A stretch of 62,973 nucleotides of DNA, filler included, from Collodictyon triciliatum (Eukaryota): NCBI GenBank assembly GCA_043381765.1. It is 8 parts of 8 records of this genome, joined end to end, with 100 filler letters (N's around TTAATTAATTAA, not from the genome) between each part and the next. Parts side by side here need not be neighbours in the genome. Positions count along the whole stretch, not along the records: positions 47,297 to 55,083 come from JBHJMP010003743.1; 7 more parts are not named here. One strand, given 5' to 3'. Made by a program: the position numbers and the translations under genes. Shown here in pieces: positions 7,752-59,363 of this stretch (position 1 is the first letter of the stretch; each line of letters opens with the position of its first letter). Under the pieces are notes generated by a model. That model searched no databases and was not told the DNA's origin. It saw only the letters and a list, made by a program, of their open reading frames with translations.

Positions 7752-7851
7752 NNNNNNNNNNNNNNNNNNNNNNNNNNNNNNNNNNNNNNNNNNNNTTAAT
7801 TAATTAANNNNNNNNNNNNNNNNNNNNNNNNNNNNNNNNNNNNNNNNNNNN
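7752..7851. other. Artificial contig spacer (N44-TTAATTAATTAA-N44)
   Basis: Six-frame stop linker flanked by Ns. Confidence 0.97.
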
Positions 7852-15644: not shown

Positions 15645-15744
15645 NNNNNNNNNNNNNNNNNNNNNNNNNNNNNNNNNNNNNNNNNNNNTTAATTAATTAA
15701 NNNNNNNNNNNNNNNNNNNNNNNNNNNNNNNNNNNNNNNNNNNN
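15645..15744. other. Artificial contig spacer
   Basis: Same 100-nt linker. Confidence 0.97.
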
Positions 15745-18136: not shown

Positions 18137-21100
18137 TTATTGGGACATCGGATCGAATGAAGCACTCTTTTTGTGTAAGCTTTTCATCTTGACCAACTTT
18201 TTTTTGACATTGCCGTTCTGAAAAAGTGGAAAAACAAACGCTTTGCTCGCAAAGTATAGCAACCAGATAGAGTTCATGGTTATGATTAGTACTGTTATCC
18301 ATGCTTGCGAACCAAGCAAAGTGGATAAAAGCGCTAGGAAGAACGAGACAAAGATAACATACAAGCTTGACAGCTCCATTTGATTTTCTAATTTTGTGTT
18401 GTAAGGTTTGTAGACCTTTTGCACCCAAATAGAGGCCTACATATCGTATTGATAATTAATCAGAGGATTTTAATTGCGTATTAATTTGTGAGGTAAATAT
18501 TTAAATTACATGTAAAATATAGGGACCTGAATAACTATCACCAACAGTAAAAAGAAAACCGACGGATCAGAGTATGGAATGACACTTAGAATAAAGGAAA
18601 AAGCAATGCGACGCACGATAATGATGAATTCCCAGTATCGGAAGCTCTGTATGAAAAATGCACATTTATAAGAAATTGTCGACTACCATACTTAATCAAA
18701 AGGAAAGAAAAAGCCATAGAAACTACCTCTTTGTATGGCAAGTACAAGAATCCATATCTCGCTACCGGTTCATAGCCATGTTTTTCACACATAAATCTGA
18801 CTTTACTCCAAGCAAAAACTGGCAACCCAAACAGGAAGAGAGCAAACACCGGAACAGATACTGCAAGCATTTTTCGGTATTCATCTGAAGGGGGGCTGCA
18901 TTTAACCCAGGGCTTGTAATTCAGGTACCAAATGTCTTCGCCATCATCATAAACAGTGCAACCAAAAACTCCAAAAACTTCTCTTGCAATAGAATAGTAT
19001 ATATAAAACAGAAGATTCAAAGTGATGAAGACGGCCTAGTTAAAAAAAAATCTGGATTTTAAAATTCGTAAAATATGGACTTGATTTAATCGATATGTCT
19101 TACCTTGTTCCGTTTATGGCCATATCCAAAATAGTACAGGACTAAACCAGCGATGACAAATATGGGTATTCTCACAAAACTGAAAAGTAGTGAATCAAAA
19201 ACAGTTTTATTTTCGAGTAAACACGATGGATTTGGGAATTCAATTGACCCGATGGAAGAAGAAATATCGATAAAACTGTTTGTGCCGTCTGATTGCAGAA
19301 TTCCAGATGAAATAATGGATAATGTTTGCATGTGAAACATAGTAATCCTGAGTTTTGCTAGAATTTTTTTTAAAAAAGTATCATTTTAGGTAAATTTGAG
19401 CAATGAATTAAGTAAATTAGATGAAATAACCTGATTTTGAAGCTTCTGAACGGTATAAGTAAGTAATAAAGCCACAAAATCCCATAGAACCAAGAACCAA
19501 GGTTGAGTAAATCGACCCTTCATTACACTTCACACATGATCTCCCTTGATTTACGTATCCTTTCTGACATTTTGAACACGCGTGGCTTTCATATCCTTCC
19601 TTACAAAACTGAACTATTTCCACAGTTACATTTGAATATGATACTCTACTTGGAATACGCGTTTCGCATGAATTCGGATTTGGACATGGTAGAATGAAAT
19701 TTAGAGTGGAAACATTTGGCGAGGCATAGCAATATTTCAAAGAAACTCCGTCTAAACATTCACATTCCCTTGAACATGGCAAACAGTCGCTTCCGAATCC
19801 AAAATATCCTGGTAAACATTCACAAAATTCATAATCATAATACTCTGGATTCATATCAACTTTTAGTTCAATCAGACCAGATTTCGAGACAATGGATGGA
19901 CACAGATAAAATTTCGATTCATCCTCCAAACTATACGGCGATGAAAAATTCATGAACCCGGGAAGAAAATGGGATAATTCGTGATTCATTAAAGTATTAC
20001 TTAAACCTAGATATTCCAGCTTTGTGAACTGGCTGTATGATTCAGGAATATTTCCAACTATCGGATTTCCAGTGAGATCAAGATAAGTCCATTTTAGTAA
20101 ATTTGTAAGCTCTCCAAGTTTTGTGATGGTGTTATTTCTTATACTTAATGTCTTAACATTTGGAACGAAATTAAAAATAATCGAATTAATTTCTCCACTA
20201 ATGTTATTATCATTTAAGAGTAGGGTATCATAGTAGTAATTATAATCAATCGATTTGGGAGAAATAAAAAAGCCAACATCACCAAAGAATGAATTGTCGC
20301 TCAAATCAATAGTAACTAGGTTAGGAAGGTTCCAAAACATAATTGGCATACTTCCGGTAAATTTGTTATGGGACAAAGTAAGAGACTTGAGTCCATATAA
20401 TTCTTCAAAAAAATTTGAGATGGTTCCGTTCAACGTATTCCGGGACAAATCAATGTATTGAATCGATGGAATAACCCAACTACCAGGAATAGAACCAAAA
20501 ATTTGATTTTCACTTATATCTAAATTTGTCAGCTTTAGTAGATTAAATGAAGGAAGAGTTCCAGACAACTTGTTTCTGAATAATACTATTTCTCTAATAT
20601 TCACAGAATTCGAAAAATTTGGAACAAGTCCTCCTATTTGATTGTCATATGCAGAAAAACTATCTAAAAATCCTAGTTCTGAGAAATCCGGAATGGTTCC
20701 TATGACGAATGATTAGGAAATGAACCAAAAATAAGTGTAAATTGTAAAGAATACCGTTTAATTTATTGCTTGAAAGATTAATCGATACAACGGACGAAAT
20801 CCTTTTGAATTGAGGTATTGTCCCTAATGTAATAATATAGAATGATTAATAAATTTCACTATCTCACACGCTTATTGAATTACGATAGATTTCTAGGTTT
20901 ATTAAATAATTAAATTACCAGTAAGCTGGTTGCTGTAAATGTTTATACCCTTGACTCTTGGGAGGCCACCAAAGTCTGGGATAGTTCCTATAAGAAATAA
21001 TCAGGGACAAATTCATATCCACATGATATAACCGTTTACTCACCCACGAGTTCGTTGCTGTATATAAAAATTCCCCTCACCTTCGGGGTATTTGTGAAAT

Positions 21101-23145
21101 TTGGTATTGTTCCTGTAATAATAAATAAGTATTTATATCACATAATTATAAGAAATATATTAGGTACCATTAAGTTGGTTGTCATATAGGTAAATCCATG
21201 CGACATTAGGAATGCTCCAGAAGTCAGGGATTGTGCCTATACGTCTTAAATATTAGAAATTCAATATTTTTAAACCAAATCATGGAATTTACCGGTCAAT
21301 TTATTACTAAAAAGGTAAATATTTTGAACCAAGGGTATGTTTGTGAAATTCGGTATTGTTCCTACAATAAAAAATTATTAAGACAGGATGTTTACATAAT
21401 ACACAAAACCACCTAGCACGATAGGGAGAAAAATATTACCGTTTAATTGATTTTCATATAAGTAAATGTAAACTAAATTCGGTATATTTTCGAAGTCTGG
21501 AATAGTTCCTGTAAAAAAAAATTATCTTAAAATCTAATAATTTGAGGATATTTGAATAAGACTTACCATCAAGTCTATTGCTCAAAAGGTAAATACTACC
21601 CACGAACGGAATTTTTCCAAAGTTAGGAATTGTTCCTATAAAATTTCGATTTAATTTCGTAATAATTATATTTTAAAATAAACCTACCAACAAGACGATT
21701 TTCATTAAAATAAATCGTATCCAAAATCGGTATACTACTGAAGTTTGGGATTGTTCCTGATATTTGAAATAAACCATGTTAAAAAGGCATCCATCAGAGA
21801 GGATTTCTTTAAAGTAAAATACTCACCGAAGAGTCTACTTTCATAAATTGCAATTACTTGGACATTTGGTAATCCAGAAAAATCTGGCAATGTTCCTTAT
21901 GTGATAACTGGATTAGAAAATATCTCAGCGAATCAATAAAATGAGGCCTAAGTACCTGTGAGCTTATCGCTTAAACCAATATATAAACCACCAGCTAATG
22001 TAATTCCTGAGAAATCAGGAACAGTGCCTTCAAGTTTGTTGCCATCTATCTCCAGATGCTGCAGATTTGACATACCTTTAAAATCTGGAATAGTTCCGGT
22101 GATTTGATTGGAATAAAGATTTAGATAAGTAATGCTTGGAAAAGTAAAGTCTGGAAGTTTCCCAAAGACAAAGTTGTAACTCAAATCCAAGTCTCCGAGA
22201 AATAAGAATTTCTCAAAGATTGGCGACGAAGTCTCTATGTCACCATAAAGGTTGTTTCCTGACATCCACATTCCAAGCACCGGGCATGTATTATTCTAGT
22301 AAGATAATGTCGGAATCAATTTCAAAAAAGAAGAATCTTTCAAAGAGGCACTGACCTTGTATTCACCCTCTAGACAATTTTCGTCACAACTAACTCCGTA
22401 CCATTCACAAATCGGTACCTTTTCATTTTTCCATCCGCTACTGTCAAACCATTCATCACCATTAAATGCATCGTAAATATCAACCAAGAGTTTATATTGA
22501 TTTGCATTAATATCATTGTCAATTGTTCTTTCTGACGAAAATGTTCGCTCCAAACTTGATTTCTTTTTTTCCATCACGTGAAATTGAGGTTTGTTTTGAA
22601 AGTGCTCAGCTTTATCAATGGGATGGTTGCTCGGGTCAATTTCTCCACTCTGAAAGCTTTTGTTGATATCCCGGTTGTTATCGCATTTATCTGTTGTTGG
22701 CAGCAAGGGACAATATTTCTCGTTTTCTTGGACCAGTGAAAAGCATGTCTCGTCGTAAAATTCCAAAAGTATTTGTAATGCATCATCGACCTTCATGGAT
22801 AGAAACTCATCCTTTGTATATTGGCATCTAAAAATTATTTGTTAAATATTTAGATAATAATATGAAACTCCAAATCGAATAAAGGATACATATAGGAATG
22901 AATAGGATGGCTGCCCTACTTTCCAGGTGGTTTGAATGAGGAACATAAGACCGCAAGAAATATCATCGAAATGATTAGAACGAATGCTCTCCATTTTCTT
23001 CAAAAACATATTTTTAGTTGAAAAATAGAATAAAGTTATTCTACGTAAAATATAAATTAAAAATGTAGTATGGAACGAAACGGAGCGAACTAAATATTTG
23101 ATGTAAATTCGAATAAATTAAATTCATTCACTCTTGGTATTTCAT
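18137..23145 (-). CDS. LRR receptor-like membrane protein: signal peptide, N-cap, >20 plant-type LRRs, Cys-rich stalk, multi-pass TM C-terminus
   Basis: Signal peptide MKYQE/KWRAFVLIISMIFLAVLCSS uses a 14-nt first exon (23132-23145). N-cap WFDSSGWKNEKVPICEWYGVSC is followed by repeated LxLxxNxLxGTIP, then CECLPGYFG...CKEGYESHACSKCQKGY, then several TM helices with RYGFLYLPYK...YWEFIIIVRR. Confidence 0.88.
20755..21895 (-). repeat. Array of nine 69-nt exons, each encoding one 23-aa LRR
   Basis: Exons 21827-21895, 21688-21756, 21567-21635, 21440-21508, 21293-21361, 21168-21236, 21044-21112, 20919-20987 and 20755-20823. All are bounded by AG/GT, with the intron splitting the Gly codon of GT(I/L)P (phase 1). 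Confidence 0.92.
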
Positions 23146-23533: not shown

Positions 23534-23633
23534 NNNNNNNNNNNNNNNNNNNNNNNNNNNNNNNNNNNNNNNNNNNNTTAATTAATTAANNNNNNNNNNN
23601 NNNNNNNNNNNNNNNNNNNNNNNNNNNNNNNNN
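23534..23633. other. Artificial contig spacer
   Basis: Same 100-nt linker. Confidence 0.97.
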
Positions 23634-31421: not shown

Positions 31422-31521
31422 NNNNNNNNNNNNNNNNNNNNNNNNNNNNNNNNNNNNNNNNNNNNTTAATTAATTAANNNNNNNNNNNNNNNNNNNNNNN
31501 NNNNNNNNNNNNNNNNNNNNN
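31422..31521. other. Artificial contig spacer
   Basis: Same 100-nt linker. Confidence 0.97.
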
Positions 31522-39309: not shown

Positions 39310-39409
39310 NNNNNNNNNNNNNNNNNNNNNNNNNNNNNNNNNNNNNNNNNNNNTTAATTAATTAANNNNNNNNNNNNNNNNNNNNNNNNNNNNNNNNNNN
39401 NNNNNNNNN
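39310..39409. other. Artificial contig spacer
   Basis: Same 100-nt linker. Confidence 0.97.
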
Positions 39410-47196: not shown

Positions 47197-47296
47197 NNNN
47201 NNNNNNNNNNNNNNNNNNNNNNNNNNNNNNNNNNNNNNNNTTAATTAATTAANNNNNNNNNNNNNNNNNNNNNNNNNNNNNNNNNNNNNNNNNNNN
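47197..47296. other. Artificial contig spacer
   Basis: Same 100-nt linker. Confidence 0.97.
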
Positions 47297-47851
47297 GTTT
47301 TGGTGTGGTTGGTGGTGTGGTGGGGGGGGGGGGGGGGGGTGGGGTGGGTCTAATGGGGAAAAAAATATGACGCGAGACCTTTCCTTATCTTTATTCCGTT
47401 TGATATGATTAATTATGGCTTGTGAGAGAATTACGCAAGCGGTAAACGTCTTTAAAATGTGACTTCCACTTGGGGATTGAAAACGTCCATGAGAGATGGA
47501 ATTGCGTATGCGAATATTGCAAGAGCGAGATTTACACGAGTTTTTATTTTATTTTGTTATCATTTTTTTTTTAAAAAAAAGTGATTTTGTCATGAATCAT
47601 GCGGCTTGACGTAGAGTTGACAGAACCATATACATCTCTAACCTACCTCTTCCAGAAAATTTTGAATATTTCAGTAGTTCTGAAAATAAGTTGACGTATT
47701 GTGTTGCTCCTTTATTGTTGTTTTTTTATTTAAAAAAAAAAGGATGAAAGTTGAATCGAATAAAGGAAAAAAGGATGAAAGTTTCTTGCTCTTTTATTAA
47801 ATTGAAAAACTATATATTGTTCTTTTGGTGCTTGCAGCCTTCTAAAGCCGA

Positions 47852-50800
47852 CTAATCCAAATCAGTAAGGCTAATTTCGAGCATATCTCGAAAATGTGGA
47901 CGAGAACTAGAGTCCTCATTCCAGCATCTTTTCATGAAAGAAACAATACTCTTGTCCATGTTCTTACGAAGCTCTGGCCTTAATCCATTCAAAATCAAGA
48001 ACTGTAGAGAAAGAGGGTCTTTCGTCGCGTATGGCAATTCTCTTGTCTCGATTTCCCACAAAAGAATTCCAAAGCTGTAAACATCTGCCTTCTCATTATA
48101 TTTATTTCCCTCTAATATCTGAGTACATGGACACATATAATAATATATTGAGATTATGACATTTATGAGTGCTTTTCGTAGATTTATTTTTTATGAATCA
48201 AAATCATACATTAATTTTATGTGTTTTTTTTTATCAGCTTATGCATGATTATTACCTCTGGTGCCTGGTAGATTAGCGTACCACATTTCGTCATCGTGCG
48301 ATTGCTAACTTTTACACGAGCGAACCCAAAGTCGCATAACTTGCTATGAAAATTCTCGTCCACCTATGAGGGAATTTAGTCACTAAATAGTCGGCAACAC
48401 CAAATTTTATTTTAAACCTTACCAATATATTGGATGATTTAAGGTCTCGATGGAGGATGATTGGGCTTAGAGAGTGTAAGTAATTCATTCCATTGATTAT
48501 ACCGTGGATGACTCTGAGTCTATGAACAGAAGAGAAAAAAATCTGAAATAGGAACTTATTTTTTCTTCGCGTCCAAAGAACTCATTTACTCACTTATTCA
48601 TCTTACTAATATCGACCATTCCGTTTTGTAAAATATTCCGAAGATTTCCTGGCTGAATCAGTTCTGTGATTATCGCAAGATTGGGGAATTCGCCACATGC
48701 CCCTATGAAACTAAGTACGTTGGGGTGCTTCAACTTCCTGCAAAGTGTGATTTGTTCATATATGGTTTAAAATAAATTCGACTGAATTCTGATTATGGTT
48801 TACGAAACAAAAATATAATTAAATCAGTATTTTACATCACCTCATTATAGACACCTCTCCAAAAAACAAGGAAGCTAAGTGCTCAGACATGTTTGGACCA
48901 GTATTGATCTTCTTTATTGCGACTTTTTGACCCTTTTTTTTAACTGTCAACAAGGCACTCTATTTATGATATGTTGGAAAGTAAAATAGAAACTTACTTG
49001 GTATTCACCAGGAAATACTGACCCAAATGACCCACTTCCTATGGCTGATTCACTTATGACTAACAAAGAATAATCTATCTCCCATTCTCTGGCATCCCGC
49101 AGTTTTTCTACAATATCATTTCTATTATTCTTCTTGTATGAAGAAGGGGTTTCTGTTTGACAGGGAACTGTTAAAGCCAAAAAGCCTCGATTCTCTGAAT
49201 TTCTAGTACTGTCGGGAATTATTTCTGGGACACTCGGATGCTTAGAGTCGAGTTCGGAGGAATATTTTGATACCTACAGAAAAATTTTATGATAATTTAT
49301 TGTTGTGCTATTAATTTATTTTTTTTTAAAAAAAAAACGATGTGTAAGTATGGTACTTAATATCGATACTACAGGGGGAAACAATTTGATAAAAGCTAAA
49401 TTGTGCCTTCTCTCCTTCACCACAAAACATGTTACTCATTCAATTATGTGGTATTGACTGAGGTTCAACACCAATGAAATAAAACGATATTTTTGAAATT
49501 TCATACATCACGCGTTGAGAATGGGTTTGATTGTGACCGACGGCATTGTGCATGATAATCCAATCTTCTATAAATCTTCTTAGGACATATCTATAGTTAC
49601 TTATATTTTAATACGCATTTCGTTGCTTGCCATGAGGATTCGTAATAAATAAATAAATAAATTAATAAATAAATAAATAAATAAATATTATTTAAAACAA
49701 TAATTTTAGACAATAATTTAGACCTCATAAAATGATGAATTTTCGCTTAGATTGTGTTGCAACTGAACCGGCTCGATTATGTTATTAATTTTTATTTCAT
49801 CTAAATGTCCACCTATATCCTGTAACATTTTGGAGGTGATTCGTTTTATTATTTAATACATCAAGGAAAATATTTTGTGATTGTGTTGAGTGCTCCCAAC
49901 CTGGTAGCAAGAGTCACTGAAAATGGTTTGTCCCTCCAAACAGAGGCGACTTATTCTAATTGCTTTTGAAATGCACTAAGCATGTCATAATTAGATACAT
50001 TCTACTGCATATTAATCTAAAAATTAAATAAATCTATAAATTGGAGAGATAAACAGCTACTTTTCCTGAGAACTTCAATCTTCTTGTGTCTTCGTCAAGC
50101 TTGCTGGTACATATACCGACATCGACACCCTGTAGTTTTTTAAAATATCTCAAACCCGTTAAATTCAATTTTCTACCATTCAGAAACAAACAAACAAACA
50201 AACAAACAAACAAACAAACAAACAAACAAACAAACAAACAAACAAACAAACAAACAAACAAACAAACAAACAAACAAACAAACAAACAAACAAACGAATA
50301 AATAAATATGGTGGTAAAGAGTATTAAAAGGAACCATATGGAACTTGAATCGAATAAAGGGGAAAAAAAAGGAACCATCTGGACTCGAAGTCCTCTCAAA
50401 TCTCCGCTGGCAGACACAGAACCTTCTTTATGCGCGAGGATTTCTTTCGGCCAGTCAAGTGCATTTAAATGTAGTTGGGTGTCAGAGCAAAACCTTTTAT
50501 TGGAAAGTGAAAATAAGTCTTTTAATTTCTTCTCATATATTAAAACAATAACCAAGAATAAAATATTTAAACCATTTTATCATACCTGATACCATTAATC
50601 GTTTCCTGAAATAGAATGATAAAATTCTCTCCATCATTTTGAGATATATATCCTTGTAGTTTACGACATTCCTGAATTATTAGTCAAATGGTTCATCTTC
50701 ACAAATAAAATCTAATCACAGGGAGAGAAAAACGGAGGTGTTTACTTCCAAAAAAATGGATATTTATTTCTTTACACTCTTGACAATCTTCCGATATAGT

Positions 50801-53800
50801 TCAGATGCTTCCTCCATAAACTCGGCTAGTTCCACCCACAAGCATTCAGAACCATACAATCGTACACAGACGGCACAAATGTTCCCCTCTGGTGGGGATG
50901 CTTCGTCATTCATAATTTCCTGTAATATAAAATAAATATATGGAATTTTTACTTACATAATGTTACTTTATTTTGGATATAAAATGAAATAAGTTCGGTT
51001 ACATAATTCATTTAATATTTTAAAATTATATAATAATCATTAACCAGGAATGATGAGCTGGATGAATGTCGGGATGTTTCGATTAAGCTCTGTTGATTAT
51101 TAATATTTCTTTTTGAATGAAATATGCCAAGTAAAAAAGGGGGAAAGGGGGAAAGGGGGAAAAGGGGAAAAGGGGAAAAGGGGAAAAAAGGGGAAAAAAG
51201 GGGAAAAAAAAGGAAAAAAAGGGGAAAAGGAGAAAAAAAGGGAAAAAGGAAAAAGAAAGGAAACAATACAAATATTTTTCTTGATGCTTCTTGAAAAGAT
51301 GGTCTCTCATTTGGATTTTGTGCCCAAAGCTGCTTTACAATTGTTTCGAAATCAACCGGTGTATTTGGGGGTATTTCTGGTCTTAAAGCATTCATCACAA
51401 CTTGTGTCGTGACAGCAAAAGCATTCTCGATGTTGTGATAGGGGTCTTTTCGAGACAATATTTCCCATGCGATAATACCAAAACTATAAACATCGGCGCA
51501 TGCTGTGTACTCTTTTCCCTCTATGACCTCTGGTGCTAACCAAAGTAAACTTCCAACGCCTTCGGCACTTGTACTAGAGCCTTGGATGGTGGTCAAACCG
51601 AAATCACTACAATTGTTCGAAAATTCATTAAATGATAAGGCTTGTAACATCGATGAAGAAATGATATATTATCCATTGATTTTTGAAATTTTAATGATAT
51701 CTTGCACAATAAGACATACCTAACTTTGAGTCGGAATCTATCGTCAACCTAAAACAAGATAATTTGTTTGAATTACTAGAACTTTAGAAAATCGGTTGGA
51801 AAAAAACTATCGAATTACATAAAAAAACTACAAACCAAAATGTTAAGGCTTTTCAGGTCTCTATGGATTATTGGTGGATTTGATGAATGAAGATAATTCA
51901 TACCTGAATCATTGAATTAGAACTTCTCGCTAGATTTAATAAATTACTCAAACGATTTTTCAGAGTATGAATTCTTACCCTTCGAAATATCAGACATGAA
52001 GGCGAGCTTTTGGGAATAAGACAGAGAAATTTCGCTGTGCAACACATCATATAAACTTCCTTGGTGCATAAACTCGCAAACAAGACATAGGTCACTACTG
52101 TTGAAGCAAGCTCCCATGTACAATACAATATTCGGATGCCTTAACTCTCTGCATTATTTGATTTTTGTTAACTTTATAGTGAAAAGTCTTTTAAAAAAAG
52201 CAAACACAAAAATGAAATGAAATGACATAAAATATAATAAAAAATCGATGATGCACTACACGAGAGAACCAGACATAACTGTTTGATAATAATAACAATA
52301 ATAACAATAATAACAATAATAACAATAATTGCAATAAAAGTAATAGTATTAGTAATGAAAATGATGATATCAATCATATATCAATATGTACAAGTAAATA
52401 AACTTAATACTTCAATAAAAACACCCATATAAAATAAAAGCATACACCATTATTGCGATTTCCTTCTTAAAGTTTTCTATCTGCCGGTTGTTGAGATGTT
52501 TTTGAAGAAGAACCTTAATGGCTACTTCGGCTCCTCTCCATTCCCCTTTGAAAACCTGCGAATTCTTGAAGTTTAAACAACAATTTTTGCATTTACTATT
52601 GTCTGAAATTTGATAGGAAGCTACCTGTCCAAAACTTCCTTGACCCAAAAGCTGTCCAAAATTTAAATCTTTAGGGTCGACCGTACCGTAGAGCTTCTTT
52701 TCAGCTCCTTTGACATCATCTATCATTTTTTTCCGGTAGAAGTACACAGTGACTGAGAAAAATACTAGAACACCTCCAACAACACCAGCGATGATGGCAA
52801 CATAATTGATTCTCTGGTGATTCTCTGAGATAAAAATTGGTAAGTGCGTATTTCATTGTAGCAAAAATGGACATCGCACTCATTACAATTTATTTTTAAT
52901 TTTATAGTAAAATGACCGCCATGCATGATTTTAAATCAATTATAACCTTTTTCCTGGCATTGTCCCTATAAAATAATGTAACCTTAACAATTAATTTAAG
53001 GATATCTATAAATGAGGTAATATTGTCTTACGTTGTTCATCAAATACCCTTGTTTGCATCGGCATTGGTTTATTTTGGCGTCATACGTGGAAGACGCAGA
53101 ACAACCTTCAAATTTTTTTATTTATGTGTCAAGTTTAAAAAACGGTTAGACTACATATCACATCAATCGTTACTCTTTTCTCATTAAAAATCAATACCAG
53201 GGTAGAACCAATCACGAGGGTCAAAGTTAGCCAGTGGGCCAATGGATGGAACTTTAGGTGTTAGCTTTTTGAATACATCGTAGTTGTATAGAATGAAGCT
53301 CTGAACTTGAATTTCAGTAGCGTTCTATAAATTGGTGTTAGAATGATACCATAAAATTGTCAGTTATAATAATTATATTTTTTTCAAAAGCCAACTTGAA
53401 TCAAACTCCTGGGCAAAATAATGTCAACAATATTGGCATCATAGAAGTCGTCGTCTCCGCCTCCAAGGAATCTCTATTTATATAAAGTTATGTGAACAAT
53501 TGACATGTATAAAAAAAATAAACAGAGTGTATTAACTGCTGATGATTCTTTATTCCTCAAGGAAAAATCTGCTGATGTGATATCGAAGAGTCCTACAAAT
53601 ACACTATATTGCCAGCTTTCCCTCGGAATGCCAGATAAATTGACAGGTATGTAAAACTATGTAAGGCAGTAGTTAAAGCTATTGAAATTGTGTTCAAATT
53701 TCACCGAATAATACTTTTTTTTCTTTTACAGATTCCCTTCATTTGATTAGAAAATGAATTTGATAAAGATTTCATAGTGTTTATGTGGTAGAAGACGAGG

Positions 53801-55018
53801 TTTGGTTATCATAAAAAAAATTTTTTTTAAAAAAAAAAAACACCTCGATAGAGTTCGTCTCCTGATTGAGATGTACCCGGCCGGTTTTTTCAGCCTCTAC
53901 TTGAAAACTTCTCATAGACCCGGGCCATGAAGGGCCGTATTTAAATGAAAATCCTTGTCCGTGCAATAACGCCATCCAAATCCAAGGATAGTTCAATTCC
54001 ACGAACGACTTATCATGGGTTGTATATCTTCCTGGGGTCTGTATATAATTCGGAATAATTACGGTGATATTATATTTATCTAACTATATAGATAAATATA
54101 ATATCATACGGCGAGAACAGAATTTTAAAACATATTTTTGCATTTTTTAACCTTAAAATTATCATGGCAATAAATGGATATGACTGGTAAGGAAAATCCG
54201 AAGGAGTAGTTTCGGGGATTTGTGAGTTTTTTCCCAAAAGTTGTTGTTAGTATCAAATGGGTGTAATTGTATCGCACACTAAATTCGCTGATGTCAAGAA
54301 GTCCAGACGGAGTTGTTCCTTCCATTTCTATATTCGTAGTATATAGACCAAACTCGTCCAGTCTTTCATCTTGCGTAGCGAACAATGTAGATATATCAGA
54401 CGCACCAATGAAAGGGATTATAATTTCATTCCCAAAGTTGGGGTTGTAACTTGAGAGAATCTATTTCGACCGAGTCATTTTCTGTTCAGAATTCTCACTA
54501 AACATAGACCTATCAGCCGTCTGTGATTACGGATAAATTAACAATTCTTACGAGGTTTTGTTCTGACCTTGAACGAGCTAATATGTCCACGATATTCGGT
54601 GTGTTTTTAGATTCATCGCCCCCTCCAAATGAATTCAAGGAGGCTTCTTTTCTGAAAGGAACAAACTCCCAGGGTTTATCCGATTCCATCCCTGTAGGTC
54701 CGTTAATTTTATGATACGTAAGCTAAAGGGTATCATCTTTTATGGTATTATTATTATGATTATTTATTGTTATTATTGTTTTATTTTTATTGTAATTAAA
54801 TAGTTCTTCTCTAAAATTTTAGAATGATTTTTTTCCTTTACTCGATTCAAAGTAAAGTTTTAGATTAATAAAAAATATTATATTTTCAACAATTGATTTT
54901 TACCGGTAAAGATCACGTAGGACCATGATGCATCCAATGGTTCAAAAAGATTTTGTGGCAATCGGGCAACGATTGTGTTTCCTTCAAAAAATATGGCATT
55001 GGAATTGATTCTGGTTTC
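47852..55018 (-). CDS. Single-pass receptor with two TKL kinase domains flanking a degenerate class III cyclase-like domain; ectodomain with tandem glucodextranase-C/DOMON-like domains; 5' truncated
   Basis: TM helix [26 protein letters not shown] (~52735-52805). Kinase 1: [26 protein letters not shown]. Middle domain: PPEGNICAV...LDWPKEIL...LRGLRVQMG...GQTI. Kinase 2: [42 protein letters not shown]. Confidence 0.9.
50184..50295. repeat. (AAAC)n microsatellite, intronic
   Basis: Perfect tetramer tract. Confidence 0.95.
51133..51263. repeat. Polypurine (GnAn) tract, intronic
   Basis: About 130 nt of G/A runs only. Confidence 0.85.
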
Positions 55019-55083
55019 CTGTATAACATTATATATAAATTAGTTTTTTTTTTTTTATTCTTCCTTTCAACTTTTGTGCAGGA

Positions 55084-55183
55084 NNNNNNNNNNNNNNNNN
55101 NNNNNNNNNNNNNNNNNNNNNNNNNNNTTAATTAATTAANNNNNNNNNNNNNNNNNNNNNNNNNNNNNNNNNNNNNNNNNNNN
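55084..55183. other. Artificial contig spacer
   Basis: Same 100-nt linker. Confidence 0.97.
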
Positions 55184-55352: not shown

Positions 55353-55691
55353 TCCTCTATTTCTTGCTGCCACAAATACTTCATGTCTCTCTATCCTTTT
55401 TTGACTTTCTTGGAGTGTGTTCTGGCACGACTTGATCAGGCCTCGAACACCTGCGATTCGCCACGCAAAGCAAAAAAGGATGAGGTGGGATCGACTCACC
55501 CTCCGTTTTTCTGCGTTTTATGTCGCGCTTGCATGACGCTATCCAGACCCTGCCACTGTTTGCTGGCTGGTCAAGCACGAGTCATCGGCTGTCAACCTTG
55601 AGCCTTGTTTGCAGCCTAAACAATAGACGTTTGCATAGACTCTGAGCAATACGCGAAGTAAGCTTCTGCAGAAGGCAAGAATAGCGCCGCA

Positions 55692-59363
<3,672 letters not shown>

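Follow-up and report, generated by a model that had tools for sequence, protein, structure and literature searches.

Can a module known from prokaryotic alpha-glucan enzymes form the outer part of a eukaryotic receptor kinase? The question is raised by a gene in a 62,973-base stretch of DNA (the window) from Collodictyon triciliatum (GCA_043381765.1), in which an original prediction had recognized, by eye, tandem Glucodextran_C (DOMON-like) domains ahead of a transmembrane (TM) helix and a kinase. The gene lies in the piece of the window at positions 47297-55083 (JBHJMP010003743.1). Our analysis shows that it encodes a protein of no fewer than 1209 amino acids, predicted to be a type-I surface receptor, and we put the probability that its structure and family assignment, as a dual-kinase receptor with a Glucodextran_C ectodomain, are correct at roughly 0.85.

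A Glucodextran_C ectodomain spliced in frame to a transmembrane helix and kinases

Splice sites were derived from the sequence and the exons put together by position into a 27-exon model on the minus strand, running from 55018 to 47852. The model comprises 3630 nt, or 1209 codons, with a single stop that is terminal (47852-47854), and all 26 of its introns are of the GT-AG type. The domain order is Glucodextran_C repeats, TM helix, kinase 1, a cyclase-homology-like region and kinase 2. The window keeps the 3' 7.2 kb of the gene, the 5' end being lost at the scaffold end (55083), inside an intron upstream of exon 1. Within the part encoding the ectodomain and TM helix, the introns are GT..AG in eight cases of eight, the GC content is 40.7% in exons vs 26.2% in introns, and an intron interrupts each of the two Glucodextran_C copies at almost matching points of the domain (~197-201 of the hidden Markov model (HMM) described below). 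The peptides quoted in the original prediction all lie on the minus strand where it had placed them, and the limits that it gave for the ectodomain, 53395 and 55018, agree with the derived splice sites (exon 1 start 55018, exon 6 end 53396). The exons are as follows.

54904-55018, minus strand: exon 1, middle part of Glucodextran_C copy 1, with the acceptor TTATACAG just before it; HMM positions 125-205 jointly with exon 2
54552-54691, minus strand: exon 2, C-terminal part of copy 1 (MESDKPWEF...); PF09985 E 0.0037, profile 163-210
54152-54460, minus strand: exon 3, inter-repeat linker and N-terminal third of copy 2; PF09985 E 9e-6
53844-54038, minus strand: exon 4, middle of copy 2
53537-53656, minus strand: exon 5, copy 2, matched by the repeat HMM
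53396-53473, minus strand: exon 6, end of copy 2; E 5e-8 in the scan of open reading frames (ORFs)
53198-53324, minus strand: exon 7, predicted extracellular stalk from copy 2 to the membrane; of the ectodomain's four N-x-S/T sequons, one lies here
52625-52824, minus strand: exon 8, TM helix, basic stop-transfer sequence YRKK, juxtamembrane segment and Gly-loop GQGSFGQ of kinase 1
51270-52555, minus strand: exons 9-13, kinase 1, motifs through APE
49724-51089, minus strand: exons 14-20, short linker and region collinear with the inter-kinase stretch of Diphylleia proteins; one intron has a (GTTT)n microsatellite
48998-49567, minus strand: exons 21-22, linker leading to kinase 2, modeled with the least certainty
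47852-48932, minus strand: exons 23-27, kinase 2 and stop codon (47852-47854)

An alternative acceptor for exon 4, at 54083, was rejected on its lower HMM score (86.9 vs 95.3 bits).

The ectodomain exons (53396-55018) splice in frame and encode ~1.4 copies of the Pfam domain Glucodextran_C (PF09985). Pfam was run on eight unspliced peptides, seven from the ectodomain and stalk and one from the exon encoding the TM helix and the start of kinase 1. PF09985 was matched in the ORF at 54128-54460, which contains exon 3 (E 9e-6, 25.8 bits against a gathering cut-off of 22 bits, profile positions 27-76), and, below the cut-off, in the ORF at 54516-54722, which contains exon 2 (E 0.0037, 17.2 bits, profile positions 163-210); the other five short unspliced ectodomain pieces gave no match. 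A local HMM of 208 positions, built from the six repeats of one Diphylleia protein, each of which is itself PF09985, matches the spliced model twice: copy 2 is complete and collinear across exons 3-6 (positions 1-198 of 208, 95 bits), and copy 1 is partial (positions 125-205, 59 bits). Of copy 1 only the C-terminal ~40% of the domain is present, the rest being cut off by the scaffold end, which falls in the intron that precedes exon 1. Among the 1992 six-frame ORFs of the whole window, the same HMM reached E<0.01 only in five exons of this gene, the next value being E 1.8. The motifs LTNP(W/R)..., GGG(D/R)D and PN(I/V)(I/V)D(I/L) are shared by the window repeats with the glucodextranase of Arthrobacter globiformis, and occur in archaeal enzymes of glycoside hydrolase family 15 (GH15) as well. 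The by-eye family call is thus borne out by the Pfam match (25.8 bits), the repeat HMM (59 and 95 bits) and the fold match presented below; of the two tandem copies that had been claimed, one is whole and the other is present only in its C-terminal part.

The stalk leads into a single TM helix, the sole strong hydrophobic peak of the protein (Kyte-Doolittle 19-residue mean 2.56), which is followed by YRKK. Judged by their motifs, both kinases are tyrosine kinase-like (TKL-like) and catalytically intact, since the Gly-loop, the VAIK lysine, HRD, DFG and APE can be read directly in each. The Pfam family PK_Tyr_Ser-Thr matched the last exon (kinase 2) at E 2e-17 and the short first kinase exon at E 2.7e-4 (20.8 bits, below the cut-off of 23.1). 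When Diphylleia proteins were aligned to the scaffold by tblastn, kinase 1 fell at 52.8-51.3 kb, while the middle region covered 50.9-49.7 kb and kinase 2 covered 49.1-47.86 kb. A separate neighboring gene was considered for the kinase found at 47.9-49.1 kb and was rejected, since this kinase is collinear with the second one of the Diphylleia proteins. The intron-containing module on a TM-kinase chassis that had been proposed is therefore present, with TM helix and kinase in frame; the chassis is not the simple one envisaged, as it continues through the middle region and kinase 2 to 47852.

The same architecture in Diphylleia rotans

When exon 3 was compared by phmmer with 1.84 billion representative proteins, five reached E<=0.001, and three of these are true relatives with PF09985. 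The first (P0006) is a transcript of Diphylleia rotans from EukProt (E 1.5e-14); the others (P0007 and P0009) are unnamed short ORFs in which a hydrophobic leader is joined to the N-terminal domain half. The two remaining proteins (P0008 and P0010) were rejected as relatives, Pfam finding in them Peptidase_S74, SdrD_B and other families and the match covering only 22-29 residues. Word-index protein searches, with exon 3 against longer proteins and with a three-row alignment of N-terminal halves, gave no match, nor did metagenome, viral and first genome scans for the domain.

P0011, a sibling isoform of P0006 with 1633 residues, contains six PF09985 repeats (total E 8e-134), a TM helix and a Pfam kinase at residues 1493-1602, so that the Glucodextran_C-TM-kinase architecture exists as mRNA in another protist. 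BLASTP aligns residues 12-523 of the window model with residues 1080-1602 of P0011 in one high-scoring segment pair (HSP; E 6e-90, 34.7% identity over 527 columns), which leads from repeat 5 across repeat 6 and the TM segment as far as kinase 1. By phmmer, window copy 2 scores 131 bits against Diphylleia repeat 6 and at most 42 bits against the other repeats. Because the D. rotans transcript has the same architecture, and because copy 2 is sister to its repeat 6 in the tree described below, the window gene is a conserved protist receptor and not an assembly chimera. The architecture is therefore not unique to C. triciliatum.

The Diphylleia family (TRINITY_DN156, comprising P0006, P0011 and P0012; EukProt EP00002) resembles the window gene in its repeats, its TM helix with GVVGG and its kinase. 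Its proteins start with a putative signal peptide (a hydrophobic leader, by eye), whereas the 5' end of the window gene is beyond the scaffold, and they have six repeats against the 1.4 retained after truncation. The repeat identity between the two is ~33%, which makes the family a distant ortholog or paralog, and its members are unannotated transcriptome ORFs rather than a described protein. In P0006, 21 residues are inserted in frame within repeat 6 and the sequence diverges early at its end; P0011 ends within kinase 1, in non-kinase sequence after the N-lobe; these features look like retained introns in the transcriptome assembly.

The comparison with Diphylleia bears on two other accounts of the locus. 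The ectodomain and kinase exons might belong to two neighboring genes, or be a mis-assembly of a eukaryote with a prokaryotic contaminant, as could be suspected of a gene model made from genomic sequence in a highly fragmented assembly. This account is largely refuted: the introns inside the domain are canonical, the composition of exons and introns fits the rest of the scaffold, the joint of exon 7 to exon 8 is in frame with no stop, the single HSP to P0011 passes from repeat 5 via the TM helix into the kinase, and exon 3 finds no prokaryotic Glucodextran_C relative at E<=0.001 among the 1.84 billion proteins. A decaying pseudogene copy of the receptor is also very unlikely. The absence of the 5' end from the scaffold and the microsatellites in the introns would fit such a copy, but the truncation coincides with the scaffold end and not with a lesion, 1209 codons are read with no internal stop or frameshift, and all kinase motifs are kept.

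Predicted fold of the repeat

Because the domain in the window is spread across four exons, the modeling was done on Diphylleia repeat 6, to which window copy 2 is sister. The AlphaFold input alignment had 27 rows (repeat 6, 20 prokaryotic domains, P0007, P0009 and four window exons), and the model has a mean predicted local distance difference test score (pLDDT) of 75.1 and a predicted template-modeling score (pTM) of 0.80. In a Foldseek comparison of this model with the PDB, a single structure matched at E<=0.001, the glucodextranase of Arthrobacter globiformis (1ug9; E 4.1e-8, template-modeling score 0.67 on the query), in line with the family call made from sequence. VIA-align against 48,161 chains gave 1ulv_A with Z 20.4 (root-mean-square deviation 3.1 Å, 213 residues aligned, chain residues 773-1017). 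The lower matches comprise Sas6 (second, Z 8.9), the gamma subunit of ethylbenzene dehydrogenase (6.8), a putative carbohydrate-binding protein (6.3), CBM9, a carbohydrate-binding module (CBM) family (5.2), and cellobiose dehydrogenase cytochrome domains (4.8-4.9). The predicted fold fits the 'DOMON-like, CBM9-like' description given of the family in PMC10074034. Sequence searches of the PDB with P0006 and with alignment A1 matched no chain.

The C-terminal domain of the A. globiformis glucodextranase (1ULV/1UG9) and the window repeats are thus both of the PF09985 family, with the fold matched via the Diphylleia repeat. The two systems differ in that the window protein has no glycoside hydrolase domain, and its module is in tandem, split by spliceosomal introns and joined to a TM helix and kinases.

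A modular family of dual-kinase receptors

The kinases nearest to the C-lobe exon of the window (114 proteins at E<=1e-10 among 548 candidates, best identity 48%) consist of transcripts from Diphylleia, receptors of the amoebozoans Balamuthia and Luapelamoeba, and 'kinase/receptor' proteins of Pandoravirus and Megavirus, and have two kinase domains; PF09985 is listed in none of the 114. BLASTP aligns residues 356-1209 of the window model with residues 546-1408 of P0027 in one HSP (42% identity over 877 columns). The model likewise gives a single HSP to P0018, and collinear HSPs at 31-34% identity to P0014, P0022, P0024 and P0029. These receptors (P0018 and P0027 from Diphylleia, P0014 from Balamuthia, P0022 from Luapelamoeba, P0029 from Megavirus and P0024 from Pandoravirus) share with the window protein the order of TM helix, kinase, cyclase-homology region and kinase, and differ from it in their ectodomains, which are PBP_like_2, Kelch (P0018/P0027), NMT1-like or 5'-nucleotidase-like. 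At the level of sequence, this comparison shows the window gene as a member of a modular dual-kinase receptor family of Diphylleia, amoebozoans and giant viruses with varied ectodomains, and the Glucodextran_C version of the receptor as one common to C. triciliatum and Diphylleia rotans. Relatives with this chassis (P0014, P0016, P0020, P0121 and others) carry PBP_like_2, NMT1-like, 5'-nucleotidase C-terminal and SBP_bac modules. The dual-kinase chassis seems to recruit prokaryote-type extracellular modules repeatedly, and the window receptor adds to the evidence for this that comes from the PBP-like and solute-binding-protein domains of its relatives.

A comparable layout is found in plants, where the LysM-RLKs, the malectin-like CrRLK1L proteins and the WAKs have a carbohydrate-binding-type fold outside, one TM helix and a TKL-group kinase inside, as in the window protein. 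The plant receptors differ in their unrelated ectodomain folds, their single kinase and their demonstrated ligands.

The middle region is named cyclase-homology-like only, because Pfam finds no cyclase domain (PF00211) in the two middle-region ORFs of the window, nor in the Diphylleia protein P0027 or in P0015, at E<=1. Balamuthia P0014 differs in this respect, with PF00211 at residues 1173-1360 (E 3e-10). The HSP between P0014 and the window model extends to P0014 residue 1347, and a weak match (E 0.02) places P0014 residues 1317-1341 onto window positions 49972-49898. By eye, and on what we take to be the metal-binding Asp motif of class III cyclases, the first such position is Arg in the window, Ser/Arg in Diphylleia and Asp in Balamuthia. 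The sequence of the middle region suggests a pseudo-cyclase.

The TM helices of these proteins have a GxxxG-type motif, namely GVVGG in the window (52740-52800, minus strand), GGVVGG in P0011, GSSIG in P0027 and GFSLG in P0018. Motifs of this type are known for their part in helix association, and their common occurrence here hints at helix-helix dimerization. The juxtamembrane string Y/F-Y-R-(R/K)-K-M-I is kept in the window protein, P0018 and P0027; P0011 has ARRYSARL.

Prokaryotic relatives and the origin of the module

In a tblastn search of plasmids, P0006 matched two Halorussus genes annotated as 'glucodextranase DOMON-like' (E 3e-5, 26.7% identity), whose proteins consist of Glucodextran_N, GH15 and Glucodextran_C. 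The archaeal Glucodextran_C domain itself matches 16 plasmid records, in 10 of which it sits on a GH97 enzyme. A genome scan with a haloarchaeal alignment yielded 20 loci from 207 pattern matches, in Halobacteria, Bacillota, Betaproteobacteria, Myxococcota, Bipolaricaulota and Cloacimonadota. The exon pieces of the window are 16-42% identical to the archaeal domains in the alignment (21% for the exon 3 piece). On two haloarchaeal plasmids (L005 and L006), genes for Glucodextran_C-bearing GH97 or glucodextranase-like proteins adjoin alpha-glucosidase genes, a neighborhood consistent with alpha-glucan utilization loci.

An unrooted maximum-likelihood tree was built from 36 rows (29 prokaryotic domains, the six Diphylleia repeats and window copy 2), leaving out the partial copy 1, the half-domains P0007 and P0009, the duplicates L003 and L004 and seven plasmid hits. 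A branch with support 98/98 separates the seven eukaryotic rows from the 29 prokaryotic ones; several of the eukaryotic branches are long, and the prokaryotic sample is biased by the search pattern. Window copy 2 and Diphylleia repeat 6 form a sister pair (99/98), and since the pairing is with this specific repeat, the repeat array predates the split of the window and Diphylleia genes. None of the 29 sampled prokaryotic domains falls inside the eukaryotic group, and the unrooted tree names no donor.

Horizontal acquisition of the module, which the original prediction had put forward, is plausible on this sequence evidence, with the qualifications that the donor is not nameable and that, in the unrooted tree, the seven eukaryotic repeats group together and separately from the 29 sampled prokaryotic domains. 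Any transfer would be old, because the eukaryotic repeats form a separate group and exon 3 finds no prokaryotic relative at E<=0.001; the simplest reading of the tree, as a candidate only, would be a single old acquisition. A recent transfer from a bacterium or archaeon into the C. triciliatum lineage alone is most improbable. The family is overwhelmingly prokaryotic by its Atlas neighbors and by the loci found, as such a transfer would have it, but the grouping of the seven eukaryotic repeats (98/98), an array older than the split from Diphylleia, the low identity to archaeal domains (16-42% for the exon pieces; in tblastn the Diphylleia repeat reached 26.7%) and the eight introns, with a near-matching intron position in the two copies, all speak against it.

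Proposed ligand and mechanism

We propose a model in which the Glucodextran_C repeats would be displayed outside the cell and bind an extracellular ligand, whose binding would alter the oligomeric state or the geometry of the TM helices and so switch the kinases. Extracellular exposure is suggested by the Diphylleia leader and by the four N-x-S/T sequons of the ectodomain, and activation via the TM helices by the GxxxG-type motif in the window protein, P0011, P0018 and P0027. As the ligand, our best guess would be a polysaccharide of prey or biofilm, for example an alpha-glucan, given that the prokaryotic module sits on alpha-glucan enzymes of families GH15, GH97, GH57 and GH65. By this analogy a glycan ligand is possible, if doubtful. 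The most specific form of the proposal, in which a prokaryotic enzyme-tail module, captured long ago, gave rise to a dedicated polysaccharide receptor of a deep protist lineage (Diphylleia and C. triciliatum), with repeats recognizing alpha-glucan or dextran-like polymers and signaling through a relay of two kinases and a pseudo-cyclase, is as a whole unlikely.

The gene and its architecture could be as described and the repeats not be glycan sensors; they might instead form a rigid stalk or spacer, mediate adhesion or self-association, or bind a non-sugar ligand. We regard this as a serious possibility, though short of an even chance. The six tandem copies of Diphylleia suit a stalk, and the fold neighbors of repeat 6 include the DOMON-like, heme-binding ethylbenzene dehydrogenase subunit (Z 6.8) and the cellobiose dehydrogenase cytochrome domains (4.8-4.9); other DOMON-fold proteins bind heme. 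The carbohydrate binders Sas6 (Z 8.9) and CBM9 (Z 5.2) are also among these neighbors. A non-glycan role sits less well with the occurrence of the prokaryotic domain on alpha-glucan-active enzymes, and with the true ligand-binding ectodomains, for example PBP-like modules, of other members of the receptor family. PMC10074034 can be quoted on both sides: sugar binding by the Glucodextran_C family is described as undemonstrated and the family is not classed as a CBM, so that the 'sugar-binding' label of the original prediction is not established, while the kinetics reported there suggest a role for the domain in recognizing alpha-glucan chains.

Several points, besides this status of the family, weigh against a glycan-sensing dual-kinase receptor as we describe it. 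The 5' end of the gene, with the signal peptide and further repeats, is beyond the scaffold end, and the window keeps ~1.4 repeats. The 27-exon model is a prediction from the genomic sequence of C. triciliatum, and its exon chain at 49.7-49.0 kb is not unique, the path given being one in-frame GT-AG path among others that are possible. Pfam, as noted, detects no cyclase domain in the middle region. The fold was computed for a Diphylleia ortholog, and the prokaryotic family rows in its alignment lean the result towards the glucodextranase fold; with these family members in the alignment, the fold and profile evidence are in part interdependent.

In agreement with the original prediction, which did not recognize the architecture as described, our literature search found no description of a Glucodextran_C or glucodextranase module with a receptor kinase. 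The papers found to name Glucodextran_C were bacterial only; those on glucodextranase and DOMON were, among the matches listed, prokaryotic by title; and those listed for Diphylleia rotans and kinase included none on receptors. In a survey of 128 species, ~40% of the non-kinase domains of protist transmembrane kinases are reported to be without Pfam annotation; its main text has neither 'glucodextran' nor 'DOMON', and its supplementary domain tables might list PF09985 (PMC10463195). Protist receptor kinases are numerous, with much non-kinase sequence to which no domain is assigned, whereas here the ectodomain family can be named and is common to two protists. The ectodomain belongs to a family of still unsettled biochemical function, and a soluble ectodomain built from repeats would be a simple reagent for testing glycan binding by Glucodextran_C. 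If the polysaccharide receptor reading were true, it would be the first signaling role for the family and would give a direct route to showing sugar binding.

Scaffold context

The window is a chain of size-sorted scaffolds, in which N44-TTAATTAATTAA-N44 linkers recur at intervals of 7,887-7,893 bases and the pieces between them measure 7,787-7,793 bases, their length slowly decreasing along the window. Neighbors across a linker are for this reason not genomic neighbors; the microsatellites differ between the left and right sides of every linker.

7752-7851: N44-TTAATTAATTAA-N44 linker
15645-15744: N44-TTAATTAATTAA-N44 linker
23534-23633: N44-TTAATTAATTAA-N44 linker
31422-31521: N44-TTAATTAATTAA-N44 linker
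39310-39409: N44-TTAATTAATTAA-N44 linker
47197-47296: N44-TTAATTAATTAA-N44 linker
55084-55183: N44-TTAATTAATTAA-N44 linker, separating two unrelated scaffolds; the sequence beyond it is not part of the receptor gene

The assembly is fragmented, AT-rich (~33% GC), microsatellite-rich and eukaryotic. Long microsatellites of the (GTTT)n, (TATC)n and (AATAAC)n types occur in introns and between genes (50170-50300, minus strand; 57340-57480; 52270-52330), and scaffold ends typically consist of such repeats. An ORF at 55616-55807 (minus strand) with a signal-peptide-like start (MKAIESVGTLKGIILVVIAALFLPSAEA) was considered as the start of the receptor gene and rejected, as it belongs to the other scaffold beyond the linker, where it sits in a GC-richer stretch. 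On a different scaffold, at 19417-22841 (minus strand), long ORFs with leucine-rich repeats are followed by a Cys-rich EGF-like stretch, and the whole resembles another receptor-type gene.

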